This document shows positions 720-26,386 of a DNA stretch of 64,000 bases, piece by piece; position 1 is the first letter of the stretch, and the number at the start of each line of letters is the position of its first letter. The stretch is from a virus (lineage: Duplodnaviria; Caudoviricetes), in IMG/VR virus record IMGVR_UViG_3300042291_001013; one strand, written 5' to 3'. Under the pieces are notes generated by a model, which saw only the letters and a program-made list of their open reading frames with translations, did no database searches and was not told where the DNA came from. The translations under genes were made by a program, and so were the position numbers.

Positions 720-1325
720 TTACATTGTAGGACCGTTGCCGTTCCTAAATCCAATCTCACCACCTTCTGCTGTGATACGCTTATAAACGTCTTCCAACAA
801 GATAGGTGCAAAATCTGTTTGCTCCACGCATACGCAATGGTAACGCACATCAATTTCGTTACTGTACAATACTGTACCAGTTTTGGCATCAACCCCACGT
901 GCTCTCTTAACACGGCTGGCATGCAAGTGTCCGTGAATGTTCACACCAAAGCGACCAATGCTGGCCTCATGCACAGGAATGTGACTCAAGATCATGCCGT
1001 TCAACACATGATACGCTCGCAACTCACGAAAGTACTCACGGTACTCGTCATCACGAAAAATGTCATGGTTGCCGCGGATCAATACTTTGTCGCCGTTCAA
1101 GCGAGCCAATGTTTTCAAGGCCTTGCGGTTGATAACAACATCACCCAAGTGGTAAATCTTGTCGCCGGGACGAACAGTATCGTTCCATCGACGGATCATT
1201 TCCTCATCCATCTCATCAGGATCATCCCATGGACGCAACTTCACGGTGTCGTCATCAGGATGTGTAAACTTACACACCCCAGCATGACCAAAGTGCGTGT
1301 CACTGACTAAAAATACTGCTGGCAT
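720..1325 (-). CDS. Calcineurin-like metallophosphoesterase
   Basis: SDTHFGH, HLGDV, RGNHD, LSH and NIHGHLH motifs. Confidence 0.9.
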   Translation of the reverse strand: MPAVFLVSDTHFGHAGVCKFTHPDDDTVKLRPWDDPDEMDEEMIRRWNDTVRPGDKIYHLGDVVINRKALKTLARLNGDKVLIRGNHDIFRDDEYREYFRELRAYHVLNGMILSHIPVHEASIGRFGVNIHGHLHASRVKRARGVDAKTGTVLYSNEIDVRYHCVCVEQTDFAPILLEDVYKRITAEGGEIGFRNGNGPTM

Positions 1326-1326
1326 A

Positions 1327-1800
1327 TTATTCTCCTACTATCCAAATTTCTTTAAAACCTTCATCTAACGATGGGGGTTCAAAACCTGTAATCATCTTTT
1401 CCATCACATCTGCTGGAATGTTCTTACCAGGGCGATTTGCCAATCTACGTACCAACTCTTGTGGCCCAGGCACTTTGAATACCACAGCAATGTGTTCGTA
1501 TTGTGAAGGCAACAGTGTGTTAAACTTCTTTTTACGACTTGCTACTGTAGTGCTTGTTTGGTCCCAGATAAAGTCCAAGTTGTTAGCTTGACAAGTCAAC
1601 GCATGGTTCACCATCAAACGAACTGCAATAGGCATGTATTCGTCAAACACTTCACTATATGTTTTACCCTGGCGGTGTGCCTCTATTTCAACATACATAT
1701 CAGTACCAACCACTGGCATACCTAAAGCCCAGATTTGATTTTTAATCCAAGTACTTTTACCCGAGCCCGGGACCCCGATTAATTGATAACACTTGTTCAT
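1327..1800 (-). CDS. P-loop (AAA_33 / polynucleotide-kinase-like) kinase
   Basis: GVPGSGKST Walker A, WDQT and lid-like RRLANR; start trimmed to MNKCYQL. Confidence 0.85.
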   Translation of the reverse strand: MNKCYQLIGVPGSGKSTWIKNQIWALGMPVVGTDMYVEIEAHRQGKTYSEVFDEYMPIAVRLMVNHALTCQANNLDFIWDQTSTTVASRKKKFNTLLPSQYEHIAVVFKVPGPQELVRRLANRPGKNIPADVMEKMITGFEPPSLDEGFKEIWIVGE

Positions 1801-2288
1801 ATATCTCCTTCGCGGGCTTTTGGGATCACAAAGCCCCAATCTGTTGTTTCACCATTGATGGTGTGTTTTTCGTCTTCGTCGTAAGTCCAACCCAACACCT
1901 TCATCATCCGGTGCTTGACCAACAAGTTGGGGCTACGGAACGATTCAGTATCCTTGAATCCTAACATCACACCAATCTCACAAACTGCACCTGAACGACA
2001 CACACCTGCATGACAATGCACGATGACATTCATGCGTTGCTCTTGTGCATGTTGCAATAGTCGAACCAGTTCTTGTGCCTGTTCATCTGTGCATTTGCAC
2101 TCGTCAGGGAAAAATTTATCGTCCTGTTCGGCATCCAAGAATTCAAACTGGTGAACTTCGCGGAACTGATACTTGGGTACAGGGAATTCGTATGCAGGAT
2201 CCACAATCTGAATCAGCATGGAATTAACGCCAGGGTCAATATGAAACCCCTGCCGAATGTCACTCATGCTAACGTTTTGAATCCACAT
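1797..2288 (-). CDS. Cys-dependent (PTP/DSP-like) phosphatase
   Basis: HCHAGVCRS = CX5R signature; GGAG SD before ATG 2288. Confidence 0.82.
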   Translation of the reverse strand: MWIQNVSMSDIRQGFHIDPGVNSMLIQIVDPAYEFPVPKYQFREVHQFEFLDAEQDDKFFPDECKCTDEQAQELVRLLQHAQEQRMNVIVHCHAGVCRSGAVCEIGVMLGFKDTESFRSPNLLVKHRMMKVLGWTYDEDEKHTINGETTDWGFVIPKAREGDI

Positions 2289-2343: not shown

Positions 2344-3630
2344 TTAGTATCTATAGGTGTCGGGTTTGTACGGGCCGTCAACTGTGACACCAATATACGC
2401 GGCCTGCTTGAGTGTCATTGCAGTGAGCTCCGCACCAATCTGCTCCAGATGTAGTCGTGCAACTTTTTCATCCAGGTGCTTGGGCAACAGGTACAGTCGA
2501 CCTGTTTCGTATCGACTGGTGTTGGTGTAAAGATCAATTTGTGCCATGACTTGGTTGGTAAAACTGTTACTCATCACAAAGCTGGGATGGCCAGTGCCAC
2601 AACCCAAGTTAACCAGTCTGCCTTCTGCTAGCAAAATAATACGTTTGCCACTGGGGAAAATAACATGGTCCACTTGTGGCTTGATGTTTTCCCACTCACA
2701 GTCCTTGATACCTGCAACATCAATTTCAGTATCAAAGTGACCAATGTTACACACAATAGCATTGTTCTTCATGGCGTCCATGTGTGCGCGAGTGATAACA
2801 TCTACGTTGCCAGTGGCAGTTACAAAGATGTCACACTTGTCTGCCGCGTATTCCATTGTGACCACACGATAACCTTCCATTGCCGCTTGCAGGGCACAGA
2901 TAGGATCTGCTTCTGTAACCCAAACTTGTGCAGAGAGTGCTCGCAGAGCTTGTGCAGAGCCCTTGCCCACGTCTCCATAGCCGGCTACCACTGCAACCTT
3001 ACCGGCAATCATGACGTCAGTGGCACGTTTGATAGCGTCTACAAGACTTTCTCTGCAACCATACAAGTTGTCAAACTTGGTCTTGGTTACAGAATCGTTT
3101 ACATTGATAGCAGGCATCCGCAGTGTGCCAGCCGCAATGCGCTCTAGTAACTTGTGAATACCTGTTGTGGTTTCTTCTGTGACACCTCGGATACCAGGAA
3201 CTAGATCAGGGTGTTTGTCATGGATGTACCCAGTTAAGTCATGTCCATCATCAAGGATCATGTTGGGAGTCCAACCATCTGCACCACGCACAGTCTGCTC
3301 AATGCACCACCAGTATTCCGCTTCTGTTTCGCCCTTCCAAGCAAAAACAGGAATACCTTTTGCAGCCAAAGCAGCCGCGGCTTGGTCTTGTGTGGAGAAG
3401 ATGTTGCAACTACTCCAACGCACACTAGCACCAAGTTCAATTAGTGTTTCGACCAGCACAGCCGTTTGAATGGTCATGTGCAAACTGCCCACAATACGTG
3501 CGCCTGCCAAGGGCTTTGAGCCAGCATACTCACGACGGATTGCCATCAAGCCAGGCATTTCGTGCTCGGCGATAGCAATCTCTTTGCGGCCCCAATCTGC
3601 AAGGCCAATATCTCTAATTTTGTAATCCAT
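2344..3630 (-). CDS. ahcY: S-adenosylhomocysteine hydrolase
   Basis: [88 protein letters not shown]; GAGG SD before ATG 3630. Confidence 0.98.
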
Positions 3631-3631
3631 G

Positions 3632-3895
3632 TTACCTCGATTCTTTGTATCTACGTCGCGGTTCGATATCAATTTCTTTGTACAGATAATCTCTAGTGAC
3701 GTGTCCAGCTTCAATTTCCAGCAGTGCTGTTACTGCATGATTGTGCTTGATAGCACTGGCAATTTTTGGCATATCGCCTCGACCCAATTCTCGCATGCGA
3801 CGAGCGCCTACTAGTACCAAATCGTATCTATTTCCAATTGCTTCCACAGCGAGTTCGCTTGTGAGCCCAGCAGTTTCAGGTGTGGTCATATTCAT
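3632..3895 (-). CDS. rpoZ: RNA polymerase omega-subunit homolog
   Basis: [22 protein letters not shown]...[11 protein letters not shown] aligns with omega [22 protein letters not shown]...TVIALREIEEG. Confidence 0.88.
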
Positions 3896-4197
3896 GTTAG
3901 ATCCTTAGGGTTGATTAATCCATTACTGTGCTTGTCTTTGATCTTGTCAAGATCTTGGAACAAACGTTTTTCTTGTTGCGTCAATTTATCCTTGTGCGTT
4001 TTGCGAGGATTTCCACACAAATAACATTTTGGATTACCACAATCCATAGCATGGTGTTTGGCCAAGCGATGTGTTTGTTTGATATTGAGCTCATTGAATG
4101 AACTATGACTCTTGGCAATTTTAACTTGCCTTGAAATCGCAACATCAGTTTTGTGGCGTCTACGTGAATTAATAAATTTTGCTAGATCGTTACTCAT
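3892..4197 (-). CDS. Conserved phage hypothetical protein (basic, CGNPKCYLCGNPRK motif)
   Basis: ORF downstream of the 4223-4251 promoter; putative Zn-binding motif. Confidence 0.7.
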   Translation of the reverse strand: MSNDLAKFINSRRRHKTDVAISRQVKIAKSHSSFNELNIKQTHRLAKHHAMDCGNPKCYLCGNPRKTHKDKLTQQEKRLFQDLDKIKDKHSNGLINPKDLT

Positions 4198-4210
4198 ACA
4201 GTTATTTAAT

Positions 4211-4251
4211 TGTGTAGAACTTATTATAGCAAGTTCTACACAAAAGGTCAA
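4211..4251 (-). promoter_or_regulatory. sigma70 promoter with its -10 inside a perfect 12-bp inverted repeat
   Basis: TTGACC(4251-4246)-17-TATAAT(4228-4223); TGTGTAGAACTT/AAGTTCTACACA at 4211-4222 and 4231-4242; TAAATA at 4203-4208. Confidence 0.8.
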
Positions 4252-4754
4252 TTGTTTAGAACACGAGCAACACTAGTAATTACCGCCGCAATTCGCCCAA
4301 TATCGCGAAGTTGTTCTACGGTGTAGCCTTCTGTCTTGAGTGTTTCGTAGTGTGCCTTGACACAGAAATGGCACTTGCCCACAATTGACGCTGCCAAACT
4401 AAATGCTTCAAAATTTGCTTTAGTTGTGCCACCATGACTTGCAATAGCATTCATACGCAACTGCGCTGGCAATCCTTTAAGGGCAGGATCATCTGCCATT
4501 TCAACGTAGGGATACCATACGTTGTTCTGTGCCATGATGCTGGCCGCTGTCATTGCTGACTCTGCGTGAACAGGAGCATCTGCCAACAACACCGCAAGTA
4601 CCTTGCCGTTGCCAGTTGCAGCCAGCGCGGCCACAGCACAACCCATGGCCACATCTGCATCTAGTGTACTACGAAGTAGCACAGCGTCAAGATTTAACTT
4701 GGTGTCTTTTGCGTAGTCTGGCAACGCACCTTTTACTGATTCAATAAAACTCAT
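4248..4754 (-). CDS. ahpD: Alkylhydroperoxidase AhpD (CMD family)
   Basis: LPDYAKDTKLNL, AASIMAQNNVWY, GKCHFCVKAH (CxxC); same operon as ahpC. Confidence 0.92.
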   Translation of the reverse strand: MSFIESVKGALPDYAKDTKLNLDAVLLRSTLDADVAMGCAVAALAATGNGKVLAVLLADAPVHAESAMTAASIMAQNNVWYPYVEMADDPALKGLPAQLRMNAIASHGGTTKANFEAFSLAASIVGKCHFCVKAHYETLKTEGYTVEQLRDIGRIAAVITSVARVLNN

Positions 4755-4755
4755 T

Positions 4756-5406
4756 TTAATATTTTCCTGATGCTAATACGATTTGACAAATGTGTTCCAA
4801 TCGTTCAATATGTTCAAATGCTCGCCACGGGCTGGTGTCAATAGCAACAACACCGTGTCCTTTGATGCCCACAATGTCATACTCAATATTACCAGCATCG
4901 TCCAACTGCAAGTTCCTGTGGCACTCATCGCCCAGTTCTTGACTAATTGGGGCCACATCACCAACATTAGGTGCCACCCGAGTATAACGACTGAGTTCTG
5001 GAAAGTCGTTAGCAAGACTACTTAACTCAATGCCACGATGCATGGCAGCAACACAGTAGGTAGGATGTAAGTGAACTACCACCCTAACATCTGTACTGTG
5101 CTGACCCATTGCTCGTTGTAGTCCAAAGTGTAAGGGAATCTCTCCACTAGGCTTTAGATTAGTACTGATGTCTGTGTAGAATTCTTCTTCCCAAGATTTA
5201 GATAGGAAAGGTGGAATGGCACTAATCTTGTCAATCAATTTAATTTTCTTGAACTGATCCGGTTGCATTGTTTGCTTGCGAACGCCACTGGGTGTGATAT
5301 AAAAGTGATCACGGTCGTGATGACGAATACTAACATTGCCATCACGACTGGTAATCCAGTTGCGTCTATATGCTTCGACTAATGTGTCGCATATAGTTTC
5401 TAACAT
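4756..5406 (-). CDS. Class II aldolase/adducin-family protein
   Basis: DGNVS, ITPSG, KPSGEIPLH, VVHLHPTY and KGHGV metal-binding motifs. Confidence 0.88.
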   Translation of the reverse strand: MLETICDTLVEAYRRNWITSRDGNVSIRHHDRDHFYITPSGVRKQTMQPDQFKKIKLIDKISAIPPFLSKSWEEEFYTDISTNLKPSGEIPLHFGLQRAMGQHSTDVRVVVHLHPTYCVAAMHRGIELSSLANDFPELSRYTRVAPNVGDVAPISQELGDECHRNLQLDDAGNIEYDIVGIKGHGVVAIDTSPWRAFEHIERLEHICQIVLASGKY

Positions 5407-5963
5407 TACAGAGTCTCGCCACCAACTGTGCGGTTACAAGCACATAGTTCGCCAGTTTGTAACGCATCTAATACACGAAGTGTTTCTTCTGGGCTACGAC
5501 CCACGTTCAAGTTGTTGACAGTAACGTGTTGGATAACGTTGTCTGGGTCAACGATGAATGTAGCACGTAATGCCGCCCCTGCTGGAGCATAGAACACGCC
5601 TAGCTGTGCAATCAAACTCAAGTTGTCGCCAGTTTCTGGATTGTAACGCTGTGTGTCAGCAAACTGGTTGTGTGTGATCTTGATCAAGTCACTGTGGCTC
5701 TTTTGCCATGCTACTTTACAAAACTCATTGTCTGTGCTTCCTGTGAGCAATACTGCATCACGGTCAGCAAAGTCACTTGCTAGTTTGTCATAGGCTACAA
5801 TCTCTGTAGGACAAACGAATGTAAAGTCCTTTGGGTAGTAAACAATTATTTTCCACTTGCCTTCAAATGACTTTTCTGTAATGTCAAAGAAAGCATCTTC
5901 TGGCTGTCCTGGCTTGACACCTGTAACCACAAACGGTTCTAACTTATCACCAACTGTTTTCAT
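5406..5963 (-). CDS. ahpC: Peroxiredoxin AhpC
   Basis: YPKDFTFVCPTE, RATFIVDP, VGRSPEETLR, GELC. Confidence 0.96.
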   Translation of the reverse strand: MKTVGDKLEPFVVTGVKPGQPEDAFFDITEKSFEGKWKIIVYYPKDFTFVCPTEIVAYDKLASDFADRDAVLLTGSTDNEFCKVAWQKSHSDLIKITHNQFADTQRYNPETGDNLSLIAQLGVFYAPAGAALRATFIVDPDNVIQHVTVNNLNVGRSPEETLRVLDALQTGELCACNRTVGGETL

Positions 5964-8668: not shown

Positions 8669-8697
8669 ATTATACAGCATCTTAGCAATACTGTAAA
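8669..8697 (-). promoter_or_regulatory. Internal sigma70-type promoter in the tRNA array
   Basis: TTTACA-17-TATAAT just upstream of tRNA-Gly(TCC). Confidence 0.7.
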
Positions 8698-10353: not shown

Positions 10354-10382
10354 ATTGTAGTTTATTTATGATTGTTTGTCAA
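10354..10382 (-). promoter_or_regulatory. sigma70 promoter of leader 1 (TAAATA within spacer)
   Basis: TTGACA-17-TACAAT; TAAATA at 10363-10368. Confidence 0.8.
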
Positions 10383-12162: not shown

Positions 12163-12191
12163 ATTATATATGACAGCAGACAAAAAGTCTA
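12163..12191 (-). promoter_or_regulatory. sigma70 promoter of leader 2
   Basis: TAGACT-17-TATAAT-6 nt-ATG. Confidence 0.75.
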
Positions 12192-12204
12192 CTGTTTTGG
12201 TAAA

Positions 12205-12540
12205 ATTGGATAGGTTTATTCTGTTACGAGGAAAACCTATCAAAACCCTAGGCAGTGTTTAGGCTGCCAATGCGAACTGTTCGTCGTTTGCGTTTACGTT
12301 TTTTGCTTCTACGACCGGGAAACCCCAACCCTACGGCTTTCACATTGCCGAGCTGTCCACTCTGTTACTCTTTGCCCTGTCGAAACCATGGCAGGCCCAT
12401 TATAAAACATACTCAAACGGGTCTTTTCGCCTATCCCCGTGCCGTGGCTTGCAAGGATAGGGCTGAATATGCTTTATGGTGGACCTGGCGGGAGTCGAAC
12501 CCGCGTCCAGAACACTTTTCTCTTTGCTTCATACAGCAAT
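12205..12540 (-). ncRNA. ssrA: Circularly permuted (two-piece) tmRNA, tag ANDEQFALAA
   Basis: Acceptor piece ...GGACGCGGGTTCGACTCCCGCCAGGTCCACCA (CCA 12479-12477) precedes a 78-nt intervening segment and the coding piece GGGCCTG... (G1=12398, G3:U70); tag ORF 12291-12259. Confidence 0.93.
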
Positions 12541-12553
12541 AACCTATATTATA

Positions 12554-13498
12554 TTAGGCTTTCTGAATTTTGTCAACCAAACCGGCACTGAATGTGTTGG
12601 CAAATTGATCATATACTTTGGCAGTTACCTTGCGAAAAGTTTGCTCATCAGCATCGCTAAATTTAATAACACGAATGCCATCTTGCTCACAACGTGCCTT
12701 GGTAGGCTCAACTTCGGCCACAGCCACAGCACGCTCAAAACGTCCAGCTTCTAATGCCGCATCTTTCATGACCTGTTGCAGGTCTGCAGACAAGCCAGCC
12801 AAGAAGTTCTTGTTCACAATGATGTTAGTCAACAACAAGCGATGGTTGGGTTCCAAGATAGATTCAGCAACTTCGTTTTGTTGGCAAGCATAGATACGTG
12901 GCCATGAGCTTTCGCCGCCATCAATAGCACCATCTCGGATGCCTTCGGCCACACGTTCAACGTCCATCACAACTGGATCAGCGCCCAGGGCAGTCCATGT
13001 AGCGGCTGCAACTGGTGAATTTGACACACGCACTTTAACGCCGGCCATTTCACTTAGACTTGCAACGTCACGATTCATGGGCATGTTCATAAAGCCACCT
13101 GAGTAGGTAAATGCCATGCCTTTGATGTTGCTGTTCTTGGCGTAACCATCCAGCAAACTCTCGCCAATTTCACTTTCAAACACACGTGCCGCGTGATCGT
13201 GATCACGGAACAAGAAAGGCAAATCAAGTGCGTCAAGATCATTGTTGTACTTGCTGAGTACATAAGTGTACATCTGGCTCATTTCAATAGCGCCAGTGTC
13301 CATAACATCCAACAGGTTATGTTTGGTGATTGGTTCACCATGATTGTACTTGCTGGTATACTCGCTTAGAGTCAGCACTTCAATCTCAAACTGTCCTGGT
13401 GCACGGGCTTCTACTACTTCAGTAAATTTTTCAGCGGCACGAATAAAAATGTCAATAGGTTCATGGGCTAATACCCATTTGATGTGGATAGGTTTCAT
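12554..13498 (-). CDS. TRAP-transporter DctP-like solute-binding protein (no signal peptide)
   Basis: ALDLPFLFRD, EMAGVKVRV, LGADPVVM, GAIDGGE motifs. Confidence 0.88.
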   Translation of the reverse strand: MKPIHIKWVLAHEPIDIFIRAAEKFTEVVEARAPGQFEIEVLTLSEYTSKYNHGEPITKHNLLDVMDTGAIEMSQMYTYVLSKYNNDLDALDLPFLFRDHDHAARVFESEIGESLLDGYAKNSNIKGMAFTYSGGFMNMPMNRDVASLSEMAGVKVRVSNSPVAAATWTALGADPVVMDVERVAEGIRDGAIDGGESSWPRIYACQQNEVAESILEPNHRLLLTNIIVNKNFLAGLSADLQQVMKDAALEAGRFERAVAVAEVEPTKARCEQDGIRVIKFSDADEQTFRKVTAKVYDQFANTFSAGLVDKIQKA

Positions 13499-13683: not shown

Positions 13684-14868
13684 TTAAAATTTAAAATGAT
13701 TGTTGATACCTGAGCTTTCAAAGTCAGCTTCGCCCAGGTAATAAAAGGGTGATAAAAACCCCACAAAGCCAACTGCTTGCCCCATTTCTCTGTTGAAGTA
13801 CTTGCTGTCAATAGTTTTTACTAGATGTGCAAGACCCGCTTGCCATTTGGCATACTGTGCAGTTTCTTTAAAGTTGGTATAAAACCAATGATCCATCTCG
13901 TTGTAAAAACTGTTGGTTGGTTTACTGGTCTGGAATGTTTCTTGATTGTACTGTGGGTAGATTAACGGCTTGATCAAGTGCTCGTATGTTGTTCGATGGG
14001 TGTAGCTGTAGTTTGGCCAACGGCACACATACTGCATGTGTTTGTTGTGCTCTAGCATAAACCAGTTCTTGACCATGTGGCATTGTTTGATAAACATCTC
14101 TGGCAAGTCAGGCGTCCAATAAAAATATTCGTTGGTCATGTTGGTATAATCACCAAAATCACCCATGCTATGATTGGCCATAACATCAATAAAGTAAGCG
14201 TACCACTTTTTGTCCTTGATGCATAGCTTGGGCTTGTCTACCCCGTACAAGATGCAAATGCGTTGACCAGTGTCTGCTAGCTTTTTGTGACCTACATAGC
14301 CTGTAGCTGAGTGCTTGAACGCATGTCCAGGTTGGAAATAATCTTTAGTTTTCATAACCCAAGATTCATCATACACTTGAGTTAACATGTTTTCACTGTA
14401 GTCGTGCATGGTAATTTTTGTGCGAGGTGAAGCAGTGGTCAACCAGTTCAGCACAGGATATGCCGCATAACGTGCTTCGCTTAGAGTGTTCTCAGGTTTG
14501 CAGTTAAACGGATCGTCGCTAACATCTTTCTCACCAGTCTTGGGATATCGAAAAACAACCTCATCAAGGTGTATTCCGTTGTTGATAAAGCTATACAATG
14601 CTGTAGTCGAATCTCCCCCACCAGAAAATTCTAAACGAATGTAATCGTACTTGTCCCGTAATTGTTGCGCACGAATTCGATACAGGTCTAGGATATTGAT
14701 ATTGGGTTCAACTAGCCAATTTTCGGCACCAAATATTTCGTTGCTGAAATTCCATTCGGGAAACTGATTGGTTTCTGTTGCCTTGGTCAGTGCCATGGGC
14801 TTGCTAAAAAACTTTTCAGTTCCTACAGTGTAGTACCCCAACTTGGGGTTTTGTTCAATCTTGATCAT
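13684..14868 (-). CDS. PP-loop (adenine nucleotide alpha-hydrolase-like) protein, paralog 1
   Basis: RAQQLRDKYDYIRLEFSGGGDSTT; EYFYWTPDLP. Confidence 0.7.
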   Translation of the reverse strand: MIKIEQNPKLGYYTVGTEKFFSKPMALTKATETNQFPEWNFSNEIFGAENWLVEPNINILDLYRIRAQQLRDKYDYIRLEFSGGGDSTTALYSFINNGIHLDEVVFRYPKTGEKDVSDDPFNCKPENTLSEARYAAYPVLNWLTTASPRTKITMHDYSENMLTQVYDESWVMKTKDYFQPGHAFKHSATGYVGHKKLADTGQRICILYGVDKPKLCIKDKKWYAYFIDVMANHSMGDFGDYTNMTNEYFYWTPDLPEMFIKQCHMVKNWFMLEHNKHMQYVCRWPNYSYTHRTTYEHLIKPLIYPQYNQETFQTSKPTNSFYNEMDHWFYTNFKETAQYAKWQAGLAHLVKTIDSKYFNREMGQAVGFVGFLSPFYYLGEADFESSGINNHFKF

Positions 14869-16478
14869 TGTGAGGTTCCAAAAAAGTTGTTGTACCAGTT
14901 GTTGGCTGACTGTGCATGCTTGGCTTGTATTTTATTTTTGCTGTTAAAGTAGTCAAAAAAGTTTATGGCCAGTTGTTCAGTTTCGTTGTCAATGTCTATT
15001 TGCCAGGGCAGATCTATGCCATAGTACATGGCCATGTTTGCTAAAGGACCTTGATACCAAAAGTGCTGAAGTTTATCATTATAGTGTCGTCTTGATTCAG
15101 ACACAACAGTGTCCTGCAGCCATTCCTTGATGCAAAGCTCTTGACCAACAGAATTCATCAATTGCCAGTATGGAGTATCGTTTTTTGGCGCTAGATACAT
15201 ACCAACTTGAATACGTTTCAGCACGTCATTATTGATGTTGTTAACAAACTGATTGTACGAATCTTTCCAGTCAAACGTTCGATCATGATCCTGCTTGATG
15301 TAATCAACCAATTGATTAATAAAAGCCAACTGAGTTGAAAATCCATTGGCGTCATATACGTCAGTAAACCCGCTGGAGATACCCAGCGTCACACAATTAG
15401 CCACAAATGTTTGTTCAAAGAATCCGGCCTGCCAAGATATTTTTCTTTTGATTGCACCCTTCATCCACGGGAACCGCTGATCAAACTCGTCAATCAACTG
15501 CTGTTCATCAGTAGTAAAGTTTTTGTTGTACACATAACCATTGCCACTGCGCCCTGGTTGTGGCAGACCAAACACCCATCCTTGACTCATGGCATAATGT
15601 CTGGACACACAATCTGATGGATTTTCTAGATCATGACGATTTGGTCCCTGCCCAACTATTGCGGCATTGTTAATAGTATCTTCAACCGGACGCCAACGAA
15701 ACGGTACAAACTGCGAAAACAATCTCTTGAACCCGGTACAGTCAACAAACAGATCTGCATGCACCTGTGAATCGTCTTCACCTACTAGGTGAGTAACTCT
15801 GGTCCCATCAAACACCACATTCTTAATTCGCAGAGCTTGAACTTTGACTCCGCAAGGAATGCCCACGCTTTCGTGAATTACGTCTTTGACATAATCAGCA
15901 TTGAAATGAAAACTTGAAACCAATCGCTTCTGTGGCAGATGCTGTTTGTTCATGATTGTTTTGTAATAGCTATACCAATAGCTTTCGCTTAGGTCGCCAG
16001 CCCTGTTTTCATTTTTACGCAGTCCTTTGTTGTATAGGTGTAACCATACGTCCCACAATGTGTATTTGTCATCTTCGGCACCCGATGCTGGACCCAGAGG
16101 TTTTGTTCTATGCCCATAGGTGTCTGTTATAGATTGTGTAATTATCTTGGCACTAGGATTCCACTGGAATCCAGAGACCATGGGTGTCTCGGTGCCATCA
16201 AATCCAAAAAATGCCACACCATACTTGTAGCTAGAATTTGATTTTTTCATCCAGTCATAAGAGCTCTCGTCATCAATGCCAAACAGTTTGCGCATAACAT
16301 CACGACAGTTAAACGCAATGCTTTCTCCGACACCGATGTAAGGAGTGTTGGGATCATGTACAATAGTCACATCAGTTCCTGGACAATTTCTTTTTATGGC
16401 GGCGGCTGCAAAATATCCAGCGGCTCCGGCGCCCACAATCACAACTTTGAGTGGCTTGGCTTCAGCATTTTTTATCAT
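14865..16478 (-). CDS. Tryptophan-halogenase-family flavoprotein
   Basis: GAGAAG, IGVGES, DLFVDCTGF, GWVFGLP...GNGYVY, LGISSGF. Confidence 0.85.
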   Translation of the reverse strand: MIKNAEAKPLKVVIVGAGAAGYFAAAAIKRNCPGTDVTIVHDPNTPYIGVGESIAFNCRDVMRKLFGIDDESSYDWMKKSNSSYKYGVAFFGFDGTETPMVSGFQWNPSAKIITQSITDTYGHRTKPLGPASGAEDDKYTLWDVWLHLYNKGLRKNENRAGDLSESYWYSYYKTIMNKQHLPQKRLVSSFHFNADYVKDVIHESVGIPCGVKVQALRIKNVVFDGTRVTHLVGEDDSQVHADLFVDCTGFKRLFSQFVPFRWRPVEDTINNAAIVGQGPNRHDLENPSDCVSRHYAMSQGWVFGLPQPGRSGNGYVYNKNFTTDEQQLIDEFDQRFPWMKGAIKRKISWQAGFFEQTFVANCVTLGISSGFTDVYDANGFSTQLAFINQLVDYIKQDHDRTFDWKDSYNQFVNNINNDVLKRIQVGMYLAPKNDTPYWQLMNSVGQELCIKEWLQDTVVSESRRHYNDKLQHFWYQGPLANMAMYYGIDLPWQIDIDNETEQLAINFFDYFNSKNKIQAKHAQSANNWYNNFFGTSQ

Positions 16479-25351: not shown

Positions 25352-25564
25352 CTACGTGCTTTTGAAACTCCCACCCACAAGTTCAATCTCAACAACTTCT
25401 TCTTTGGCGGCTGGAATTCCACGCAAGATTTCCAAGGTCAGCAACAATTTGGTAATGTCACTGTGTAAATCCTTGGCATCTCGCAAGGTCATTGTTAAAT
25501 CGCGTTGATTGCGACTCTCTGCGGCTTTGATAGCGTCAACAAATCGATTTATATGCAAGCTCAT
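25352..25564 (-). CDS. Small hypothetical protein
   Basis: ORF track; ATGA-coupled. Confidence 0.65.
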   Translation of the reverse strand: MSLHINRFVDAIKAAESRNQRDLTMTLRDAKDLHSDITKLLLTLEILRGIPAAKEEVVEIELVGGSFKST

Positions 25565-25953
25565 TTTGTTTGCAAGTATGGATCATTTTTGTGAAGATGT
25601 GGTTTCAAGTCCGGTGCTGTCCAGCCCACAGGCTTGAGTACCTTGCCATCTTCGCGCTTGCGAACTTTGCCAGTTTCTCGATCAATCTTGGCAAAGTTAG
25701 TGCGCATGACTTCTTTCCAGCCACCTTCAGCGTCCATGCCTGCTGAGTGGATGGCACCAATTGTCACAACAAGAATATCCAGCAAGGCATCTAAGATTTC
25801 TTCATCGTTGTTGTCAACTAGAGCTTGTTTGAGTTCTTTGTGTTCTTCTTCAATCAAGGAACAGTACATGTCAAACTGTGTGCCATTGAACTTTTCAACC
25901 GACTGGTCGCAGGCCCGCATGAATTTTTCTTGATCACGAAACGGATTGGTCAT
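25561..25953 (-). CDS. MazG-like (all-alpha) NTP pyrophosphohydrolase
   Basis: LIEEEHKEL...ILDALLDILVVTIG...VMRTNFAK...REDGKVLKP. Confidence 0.85.
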   Translation of the reverse strand: MTNPFRDQEKFMRACDQSVEKFNGTQFDMYCSLIEEEHKELKQALVDNNDEEILDALLDILVVTIGAIHSAGMDAEGGWKEVMRTNFAKIDRETGKVRKREDGKVLKPVGWTAPDLKPHLHKNDPYLQTK

Positions 25954-26386
25954 TTGCTTCTTCTTTGGTATGGAAAGGACCTGCATACTTGTAGCGTTGC
26001 AAGGTAATGAGCTTGGGGTGCTGTATAGTCTTCCAAGTTCGATGTTGTTTAACACTATACCAACCTGCCGCATACCAGCTCTTGCTTTTGTTGTCACGAG
26101 TGAACAATGGTAACTTTAACTGTACATTCCACAAGGGATTGTACACTTGTCCAGTAACTTCAAAGCCATGAACAATGTTGGCCGGTACTGGGTGAGATTC
26201 TACTAAAGGTTCAAACTCAATATTGGCCGCTTGACGGGCCATTTTGATAGTTTTGTATTGTGCTACGCTATCGTTAATTCGTATGGTGCAGTTACCATTC
26301 TCGGCTACTTCAAGTTGACCAACCTTGCGGTTATCCTGCTTGAGTATCCAAAACTGGTTCTCTACTACGGGTTTGGCTAATATCAT
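25934..26386 (-). CDS. Conserved phage hypothetical protein
   Basis: AKPVVENQFWIL...YAAGWY...GPF. Confidence 0.7.
   Translation of the reverse strand: MILAKPVVENQFWILKQDNRKVGQLEVAENGNCTIRINDSVAQYKTIKMARQAANIEFEPLVESHPVPANIVHGFEVTGQVYNPLWNVQLKLPLFTRDNKSKSWYAAGWYSVKQHRTWKTIQHPKLITLQRYKYAGPFHTKEEANDQSVS

Follow-up and report, generated by a model that had tools for sequence, protein, structure and literature searches.

A giant lake phage encodes an omega (RpoZ) homologue with an altered ppGpp site-1 surface that may act in host RNA polymerase

An uncultured giant lake phage was found to encode a homologue of omega (RpoZ), the smallest of the bacterial RNA polymerase subunits, in which the family core is kept, while at the N-terminus eight extra residues stand in front of the cellular start position and glycine takes the place of Arg3. 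We propose that this protein is incorporated into the RNA polymerase of the host, which we consider quite likely, and that an enzyme carrying it would show a changed response to ppGpp at site 1; to this statement as a whole we give a probability of about 0.45. The window, by which we mean the whole stretch of DNA analysed, is 64,000 nucleotides long and belongs to an IMG/VR record of 100 kb with an estimated completeness of 29%. The identical omega protein was also observed on a contig of 361 kb. The omega gene and its parts are located as follows:

3632..3895, minus strand, stop included: omega (RpoZ) homologue of 87 amino acids, from the ORF call, Pfam/NCBIfam matches and fold
3902..3906, minus strand: Shine-Dalgarno sequence AAGGA, 6 nt before the omega ATG, read from the sequence
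3872..3895, minus strand: N-terminal extension, codons 1-8 (MNMTTPET), preceding the position of cellular Met1
3866..3868, minus strand: codon 10, GGG (Gly), on Arg3 of E. coli omega by phmmer alignment
3719..3721, minus strand: codon 59, CTG (Leu), on Arg52 of E. coli omega by phmmer alignment
3641..3661, minus strand: basic C-terminal motif E-P-R-R-R-x-K, family-specific and not in E. coli omega

The product of this gene belongs to the RpoZ family by sequence and by predicted fold. It matched PF01192 (RNA_pol_Rpb6) with an E-value of 3.3e-10 and 40.3 bits (cut-off 26) and TIGR00690 (rpoZ) with 39.2 bits (cut-off 23.6). An AF2 model built on 35 relatives had a pLDDT of 78, with helices at residues 13-20, 23-38, 53-62 and 68-72, and in a Foldseek search this model matched E. 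coli omega chains best, at an rmsd of 1.5-1.7 A and 44% identity across 62 columns. At least the 20 best matches of the predicted fold were omega chains with an rmsd of 1.5-2 A, and structures 5w1s and 6j9e were also among the matches. The initial annotation had called the core clearly omega, and the two family matches above their cut-offs, together with the overlay of the predicted fold on E. coli omega, bear this out.

Compared with proteobacterial RpoZ (E. coli 6pss_K, 8tom_K and 4jk1_J; Vibrio cholerae 9gdo_E), the phage protein has about 44% identity over 62 residues and the same helical fold, and the core blocks IGNR[YF]DLVL..ARR.R and AL.EIE.G are kept. It differs in being phage-encoded and translationally coupled to a Cys/His-rich protein, in an 8-residue leader that replaces the free MAR end, in Gly at Arg3 and Leu at Arg52, and in a RELGRGD loop and a basic EPRRR C-terminus. 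The gmk-rpoZ-spoT setting frequent in proteobacteria is also absent; omega is instead flanked by a small phage ORF, whose TGA overlaps the omega ATG (ATGA), and by the gene for S-adenosylhomocysteine hydrolase (AhcY), whose start (3630) lies 1 nt past the omega stop, both junctions being read from the sequence. All relatives sit in phage contexts; genomic setting does not define the omega protein family. PHROG holds no family for omega, and a tblastn search of INPHARED with omega gave no matches beyond bacterial rpoZ in records that are mislabelled or contaminated.

At site 1 of the E. coli enzyme, residues 2-5 and others of omega hold the phosphates of ppGpp together with beta' R417 and K615, and beta' I619, D622 and R362 hold the base (PMC7676912). 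The N-terminal MAR motif of omega predicts site 1 in Alpha- to Deltaproteobacteria and is conserved in betaproteobacteria (PMC6912228). A phmmer search of PDB chains aligned residues 10-72 of phage omega with residues 3-65 of Vibrio and E. coli omega, which places Gly10 on Arg3 and Leu59 on Arg52, and Ala9 falls on Ala2 when the gap-free alignment is carried two residues upstream. In place of Met-Ala-Arg at the extreme N-terminus, the phage protein thus keeps the Ala, has Gly for the Arg and carries eight residues in front, as the initial annotation had described (G10 on R3, with 8 residues before the position of cellular Met1). A second basic residue, Arg52, which is reported to contact ppGpp in the 2013 structures, is also missing, with Leu59 at its position. 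Judged by these residues, phage omega falls outside the site-1-competent MAR subclass.

The N-terminal extension is translated, being in frame and stop-free in 41 of 41 distinct extension-type coding sequences. A wrong start codon as the source of the extension was ruled out by the Shine-Dalgarno sequence, the ATGA coupling and conservation at the protein level. We also considered a capsid-targeting leader, cut by a T4-like head protease after hydrophobic-x-Glu, and rejected it since many leaders of the family lack a Glu at a constant position.

A search of 5.8 billion proteins identified 263 related proteins with 60-95% identity, and relatives of the leader-type omega were carried by 199 IMG/VR contigs. 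A leader of 7-16 amino acids was present in every family member examined, over more than 40% sequence divergence, and Gly10 and Leu11 did not vary, either in a set of 35 divergent members or in one of 41 distinct coding sequences. The leader motif [DE]-x-T-[AL]-G-L was semi-conserved, with D or E at position 6 in 30 of 41 and T at position 8 in 33 of 41. At the Arg52 position the family has mostly Leu (19 of 41) or Lys (20 of 41), with one Met and one Glu. For the C-terminal motif, P79 and R80 were invariant and R81 and R82 at least 90% conserved in 35 members, while among the 41 coding sequences the Pro was found in 33 and the Arg positions in 37, 39 and 32. The gene is under purifying selection, with a pairwise dN/dS of 0.20 overall; by region, the value is 0.15 in the core, 0.25 in residues 9-14 and 0.69 in the leader. 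Across the wider radiation, Arg3 was accompanied by Arg52 in 39 of 60 proteins and Gly3 by Arg52 in 3 of 64 (naive Fisher p 1.6e-13, descriptive only as the rows are not independent), and such paired loss fits both residues being part of one functional site.

For abolishing the site any residue other than Arg would do. That Gly10 and Leu11 never vary, and that the [DE]-x-T-[AL]-G motif is semi-conserved, speaks for a new contact of the leader, the candidates being beta', the partner or the site-1 cleft itself. The strict conservation of Gly10 and Leu11, along with the near-invariant T8, suggests a new positive function and not mere destruction of the site.

When 1.84 billion cluster representatives were searched exhaustively with HMMER, 168 matches resulted. 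In a quick IQ-TREE maximum-likelihood tree, which is based on 65 columns and poorly resolved, cellular omegas of the classical kind, with MAR[VIL]T[VI] at the start, formed their own clade (SH-aLRT 98), and the leader-plus-Gly proteins clustered (11 changes against 51 with shuffled labels) within a large radiation of short omegas. One member of the classical clade, P0215, starts MANVTF and has Asn at the Arg3 position, so rare exceptions to MAR exist within that clade as well.

The radiation of short omegas also includes native starts of the MARITS type; three of these were checked by context, and all were on phage-like contigs. Native-start phage omegas were observed at the IMG/VR loci L082, L086 and L087 (MSRLSSE...) and at the MAG locus L008 (MARITSD...). 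Like the leader-type proteins, those at L008, L082 and L087, and the proteins P0146, P0153 and P0170, are short (64-82 amino acids) and lie on phage-like contigs, and they share TSE..AV..IGNRYDL, RELxRGD and the same radiation in the tree. They differ in keeping Arg3 within an M-A/S-R start and in having neither a leader nor an upstream partner gene, while R52 is present only sometimes (3 of 5 loci). As read from these proteins, omega comes in at least two kinds among phages, only one of which has lost the MAR end. Blindness to ppGpp would not be the general reason for a phage to carry omega, because M-A/S-R, and often R52 too, is retained in related phage omegas. The comparison with other phage RpoZ proteins, which the initial annotation had proposed as a check, came out in two parts, with the Gly invariant in leader-bearing relatives and the Arg3 kept in native-start phage omegas.

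Cellular genomes were covered by two pattern scans, using one genome per species for 185,579 species. The first of these, with single-protein patterns, gave no match in the 185,579 genomes. Over the same genomes the two scans together gave two loci only, both on phage-like contigs of one 'Haliscomenobacter' MAG that carry the phage families phrog_1297, phrog_547 and phrog_1314. The initial annotation had held that cellular relatives with the same substitution would speak against its reading, and among the 185,579 species nothing beyond these two contigs was found; the leader-type omega looks phage-specific on this count. The two contigs, L007 (NZ_JBBAKG010000090.1) and L008 (NZ_JBBAKG010000001.1), are 23 kb and 183 kb long and are assigned to a 'Haliscomenobacter sp.' Bacteroidota MAG. 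Each carries one phage omega, one of the leader type with the partner and the other of the native MAR type, and these two proteins are the only TIGR00690 matches in that MAG. We consider both contigs to be probably jumbo-phage DNA binned into a Bacteroidota MAG.

Directly upstream of omega lies a small gene for a Cys/His-rich protein, here called the partner and not noted in the initial annotation, preceded by a promoter-like sequence:

3892..4197, minus strand: partner gene, 101 amino acids (MSNDLAKFINSRRRHK...), phrog_4499, with its stop overlapping the omega start (ATGA)
4223..4251, minus strand: promoter-like TTGACC-17-TATAAT with a TG extended -10, 11 of 12 matches, about 25 nt upstream of the partner ATG

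An ORF can also be called over 3892..4251 from a TTG at 4251, but this call is over-extended, its first 18 codons being the promoter, and the conserved protein starts at 4197 (MSNDLAKF...). The partner matched phrog_4499, a family without known function, with an E-value of 5.8e-10 over residues 30-100 of the 119-aa ORF. It is basic and contains the motif H-R-x-A-K-x-H-A-x-x-C-G-x-x-x-C-x-x-C-G-N-P-R-K, followed by QExRLFQD and HSNG, and in the alignment H43, C53, C58, C61, N63-P64-R65 and Q75-E76 are invariant, a pattern that suggests a small zinc knuckle. Twenty-four partner sequences scanned against Pfam gave no family, a profile search found no PDB relative, and matches in the ESM Atlas were to viral hypothetical clusters only, none of them named. 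We rejected the partner as a zinc-finger factor of the DksA/TraR type, PF01258 being absent from the Pfam scan of the 24 sequences. The AF2 model of the partner (pLDDT 65) was too low for a fold search, and prediction of an omega-partner complex returned 'no answer' with a score of 0.00 in both runs, which carries no weight either way.

A partner homologue was observed on the same strand and directly upstream of omega, overlapping or with one gene between, at 77 of 81 leader-type loci and at 0 of 5 native-start loci (naive Fisher p 3.6e-6, the rows not being independent). In 39 of 53 distinct upstream regions from relatives, a sigma70-type promoter matching the consensus at 10 or more of 12 positions, mostly with TG, stood equally far from the partner ATG. 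Based on this conserved promoter and the same-strand pairing, partner and omega seem to form an operon transcribed early by host polymerase in its unmodified state. Fusions of the two proteins were not found, and looking for longer forms of omega turned up a single over-called ORF of 165 amino acids. At four loci (L018, L043, L055 and L056) a perfect TTGACA-17-TATAAT ends 5 nt before the partner ATG, and with the promoter this close the mRNA of the pair would be leaderless there. Distant homologues of the partner (about 32% identity, E-values of 1e-3 to 1e-5) occur in about 30 phiKZ-like jumbo phages, Pseudomonas phages among them, which have RNA polymerases of their own. The homologue of Pseudomonas phage PA7 is L098 (NC_042060.1, 72981-73274), and no omega-like ORF is annotated within the 7 kb of PA7 that were read.

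The window also carries a T4-type family B DNA polymerase (phrog_262, E 1e-196), 28 tRNA genes and a tmRNA, and many consensus sigma70 promoters stand before the phage tRNA genes, among them those at 12548-12576, 10354-10382 and 8669-8697. A complete relative of 364,404 bp with direct terminal repeats encodes exactly one omega, and no beta' (PF00623), beta (PF00562), sigma70 region 2 or DksA/TraR zinc finger was found in it. The only plausible target of phage omega is thus the RNA polymerase of the host, as the complete relative has no beta or beta' gene. Searches of G000 and four related records for DksA/TraR (PF01258), sigma70 region 2, beta, beta', SpoT HD and RelA/SpoT were all without a match, and in these five records omega is accompanied by neither a SpoT-type hydrolase nor a RelA/SpoT synthetase nor a DksA/TraR gene. 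Further genes of the window are listed here:

720-1325, minus strand: calcineurin-like phosphoesterase, downstream of AhcY
1327-1839, minus strand: AAA_33 kinase-like protein, downstream of AhcY
1797-2288, minus strand: dual-specificity phosphatase-like protein, downstream of AhcY
2344..3630, minus strand: S-adenosylhomocysteine hydrolase (AhcY), PF05221 E 1e-131, next in the transcription unit; context, outside the proposed mechanism
4248-4754, minus strand: AhpD-like CMD protein, in the host-like run 2344-5963
4756-5406, minus strand: class II aldolase, in the host-like run 2344-5963
5406-5963, minus strand: AhpC peroxiredoxin, in the host-like run 2344-5963
12171-12590, minus strand: phage tmRNA of the betaproteobacterial permuted type, RF01850 at 112 bits (cut-off 84), full length; RF04321 at 123 bits
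12554-13528, minus strand: DctP-type TRAP solute-binding protein, host-like gene
14865-16478, minus strand: tryptophan halogenase-like flavoenzyme, host-like gene
25561-26097, minus strand: PRA-PH-type all-alpha NTP pyrophosphohydrolase, PF01503 E 1.5e-9

The type of the tmRNA, for which ARAGORN reads the tag ANDEQFALAA, suggests that the host is probably a betaproteobacterium. A perfect TTGACA-17-TATAAT at 12576-12548 lies within the RF01850 match, near its 5' end. The host-like run around omega (2344-5963, minus strand) is syntenic in relatives, some of which add a cytochrome c, a GDSL lipase-like protein, a phosphate-binding PBP and a Na/H exchanger to it. A calcineurin-like (Metallophos) phosphoesterase was observed at most two genes from omega in L005 and L007, and belonged to phrog_547 where this was scanned (L007). 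The protein at 25561-26097 was considered as a ppGpp hydrolase and rejected, its MazG match being weak and sub-threshold and the protein itself a PRA-PH-type pyrophosphohydrolase. The phage was present in at least 24 lake-water runs.

In the mechanism we propose, phage omega would be made early from a host-type sigma70 promoter, along with its Cys/His-rich partner, and would take the omega position on beta' of the host RNA polymerase. The core expected to bind beta' is kept, and the surface that makes up half of site 1 in proteobacteria is rebuilt, with no free Met-Ala-Arg end, Gly for Arg3, Leu for Arg52 and a leader of 7-16 residues. Given this rebuilt surface, polymerase carrying phage omega should bind or respond to ppGpp differently at site 1, most likely less. 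A possible gain would be phage transcription during starvation or during alarmone bursts triggered by defence.

The initial annotation had proposed a possible bypass of the stringent response. Parts of that proposal stand, as the phage omega is real, its Arg3 is changed to Gly and its R52 is also replaced, the MAR motif is a published predictor of site 1 (PMC6912228), and no cellular relatives were found. Other observations weaken it, namely the dominance of site 2 with DksA (PMC7676912), the invariant Gly10 and Leu11, the phage omegas that keep MAR, and the lack of any other ppGpp gene beside omega. In E. coli, site 2 with DksA carries most of the ppGpp response and dominates in vivo, deletion of rpoZ gives a modest phenotype with a modest lag, and polymerase whose omega lacks residues 2-5, combined with three beta' changes, binds ppGpp only about 2-fold worse (PMC7676912). 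Because loss of omega or of site 1 has so modest a phenotype, and site 2 with DksA is the main site, an omega swap alone would be a partial bypass at most. A more elaborate version is a two-part takeover kit, in which omega is swapped, the leader plugs or covers the site-1 cleft or acts there as a built-in pseudo-ligand, and the partner, recruited by the new surface, marks an alarmone-blind pool of polymerase owned by the phage; we regard this version as speculative and rather doubtful.

The main rival to a changed site-1 response is that leader-type omega serves as a docking handle, its N-terminal segment or PRRR tail recruiting the partner or another phage factor to host RNA polymerase, with the loss of ppGpp residues a side effect of surface remodelling. 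We hold this reading to be possible, though unlikely. The partner lies directly upstream on the same strand at 77 of 81 leader-type loci but at none of the 5 with a native start, the end of its gene overlaps the omega ATG and the conserved promoter is common to the pair, all of which would fit such a handle, as would the strict conservation of Gly10, Leu11 and the PRRR tail in omega and the invariant C53, C58, C61 and H43 of the partner, with their suggestion of a zinc knuckle. However, a fused partner-omega protein was not found, the partner belongs to no recognisable RNAP- or DNA-binding family by Pfam, PDB profile or the ESM Atlas, and its distant homologues also occur in phiKZ-like phages, of which PA7 has no annotated omega-like ORF in the 7 kb read.

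Two further explanations were considered. Extra omega could chaperone the folding of beta' and keep RNA polymerase abundant through a long jumbo-phage infection, with the N-terminal changes as neutral drift. Omega is established as an aid to the folding of beta' and the assembly of RNA polymerase (PMC7598289, citing Minakhin et al. 2001; PMC5811629), the omega gene sits among host-like metabolic genes (AhpC, AhpD-like CMD, class II aldolase and AhcY), and some phage omegas retain the native MAR start. Drift does not, however, yield an invariant Gly10 and Leu11 or a universal leader over more than 40% divergence, the host has an omega already, and the coupled partner and C-terminal motif would be left without explanation, which makes this reading improbable in our view. 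We give still less credence to an anti-host decoy, in which phage omega would bind beta' or another omega partner and disable the host polymerase or its regulation. Early expression from a sigma70 promoter would suit such a takeover function and the altered surfaces could poison a host interaction, but this phage lineage has no RNA polymerase of its own, and the many consensus sigma70 promoters before its tRNA genes indicate that it needs a working host enzyme. The preferred reading remains the incorporation of phage omega into host polymerase with a changed response at site 1.

Phages retool host RNA polymerase by several known means, among them sigma factors, anti-sigma factors, small binders and covalent modification. 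Examples are ADP-ribosylation by T4 Alt and ModA, AsiA/MotA, gp55/gp33, T7 Gp2, the P7 protein of a Xanthomonas phage and TraR-like factors. As in these strategies, an early phage product would be expected to act on the host enzyme. The known products are accessory binders or modifying enzymes, whereas the one observed here is a homologue of a core subunit itself. Our full-text literature searches found no description of a phage-encoded omega, and an overview of jumbo-phage genomics mentions neither omega nor RpoZ (PMC7824862).

The function proposed here is plausible though unproven, and would matter in several ways. If phage omega enters the host enzyme, these phages would provide natural, evolution-tested variants of omega at site 1, with and without MAR and with and without the partner. 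Such a set could settle the in vivo contribution of site 1, which is still debated because of the mild rpoZ phenotype. A further gain would be an explanation of how jumbo phages abundant in lakes maintain transcription of their large tRNA and tmRNA arrays and early genes when hosts are starved and growing slowly, and an ecological effect is possible in view of the 199 IMG/VR contigs and the presence of the phage in at least 24 lake-water runs. Should the reading as a two-part kit prove true, replacement of a subunit would be a new class of phage control over host transcription.
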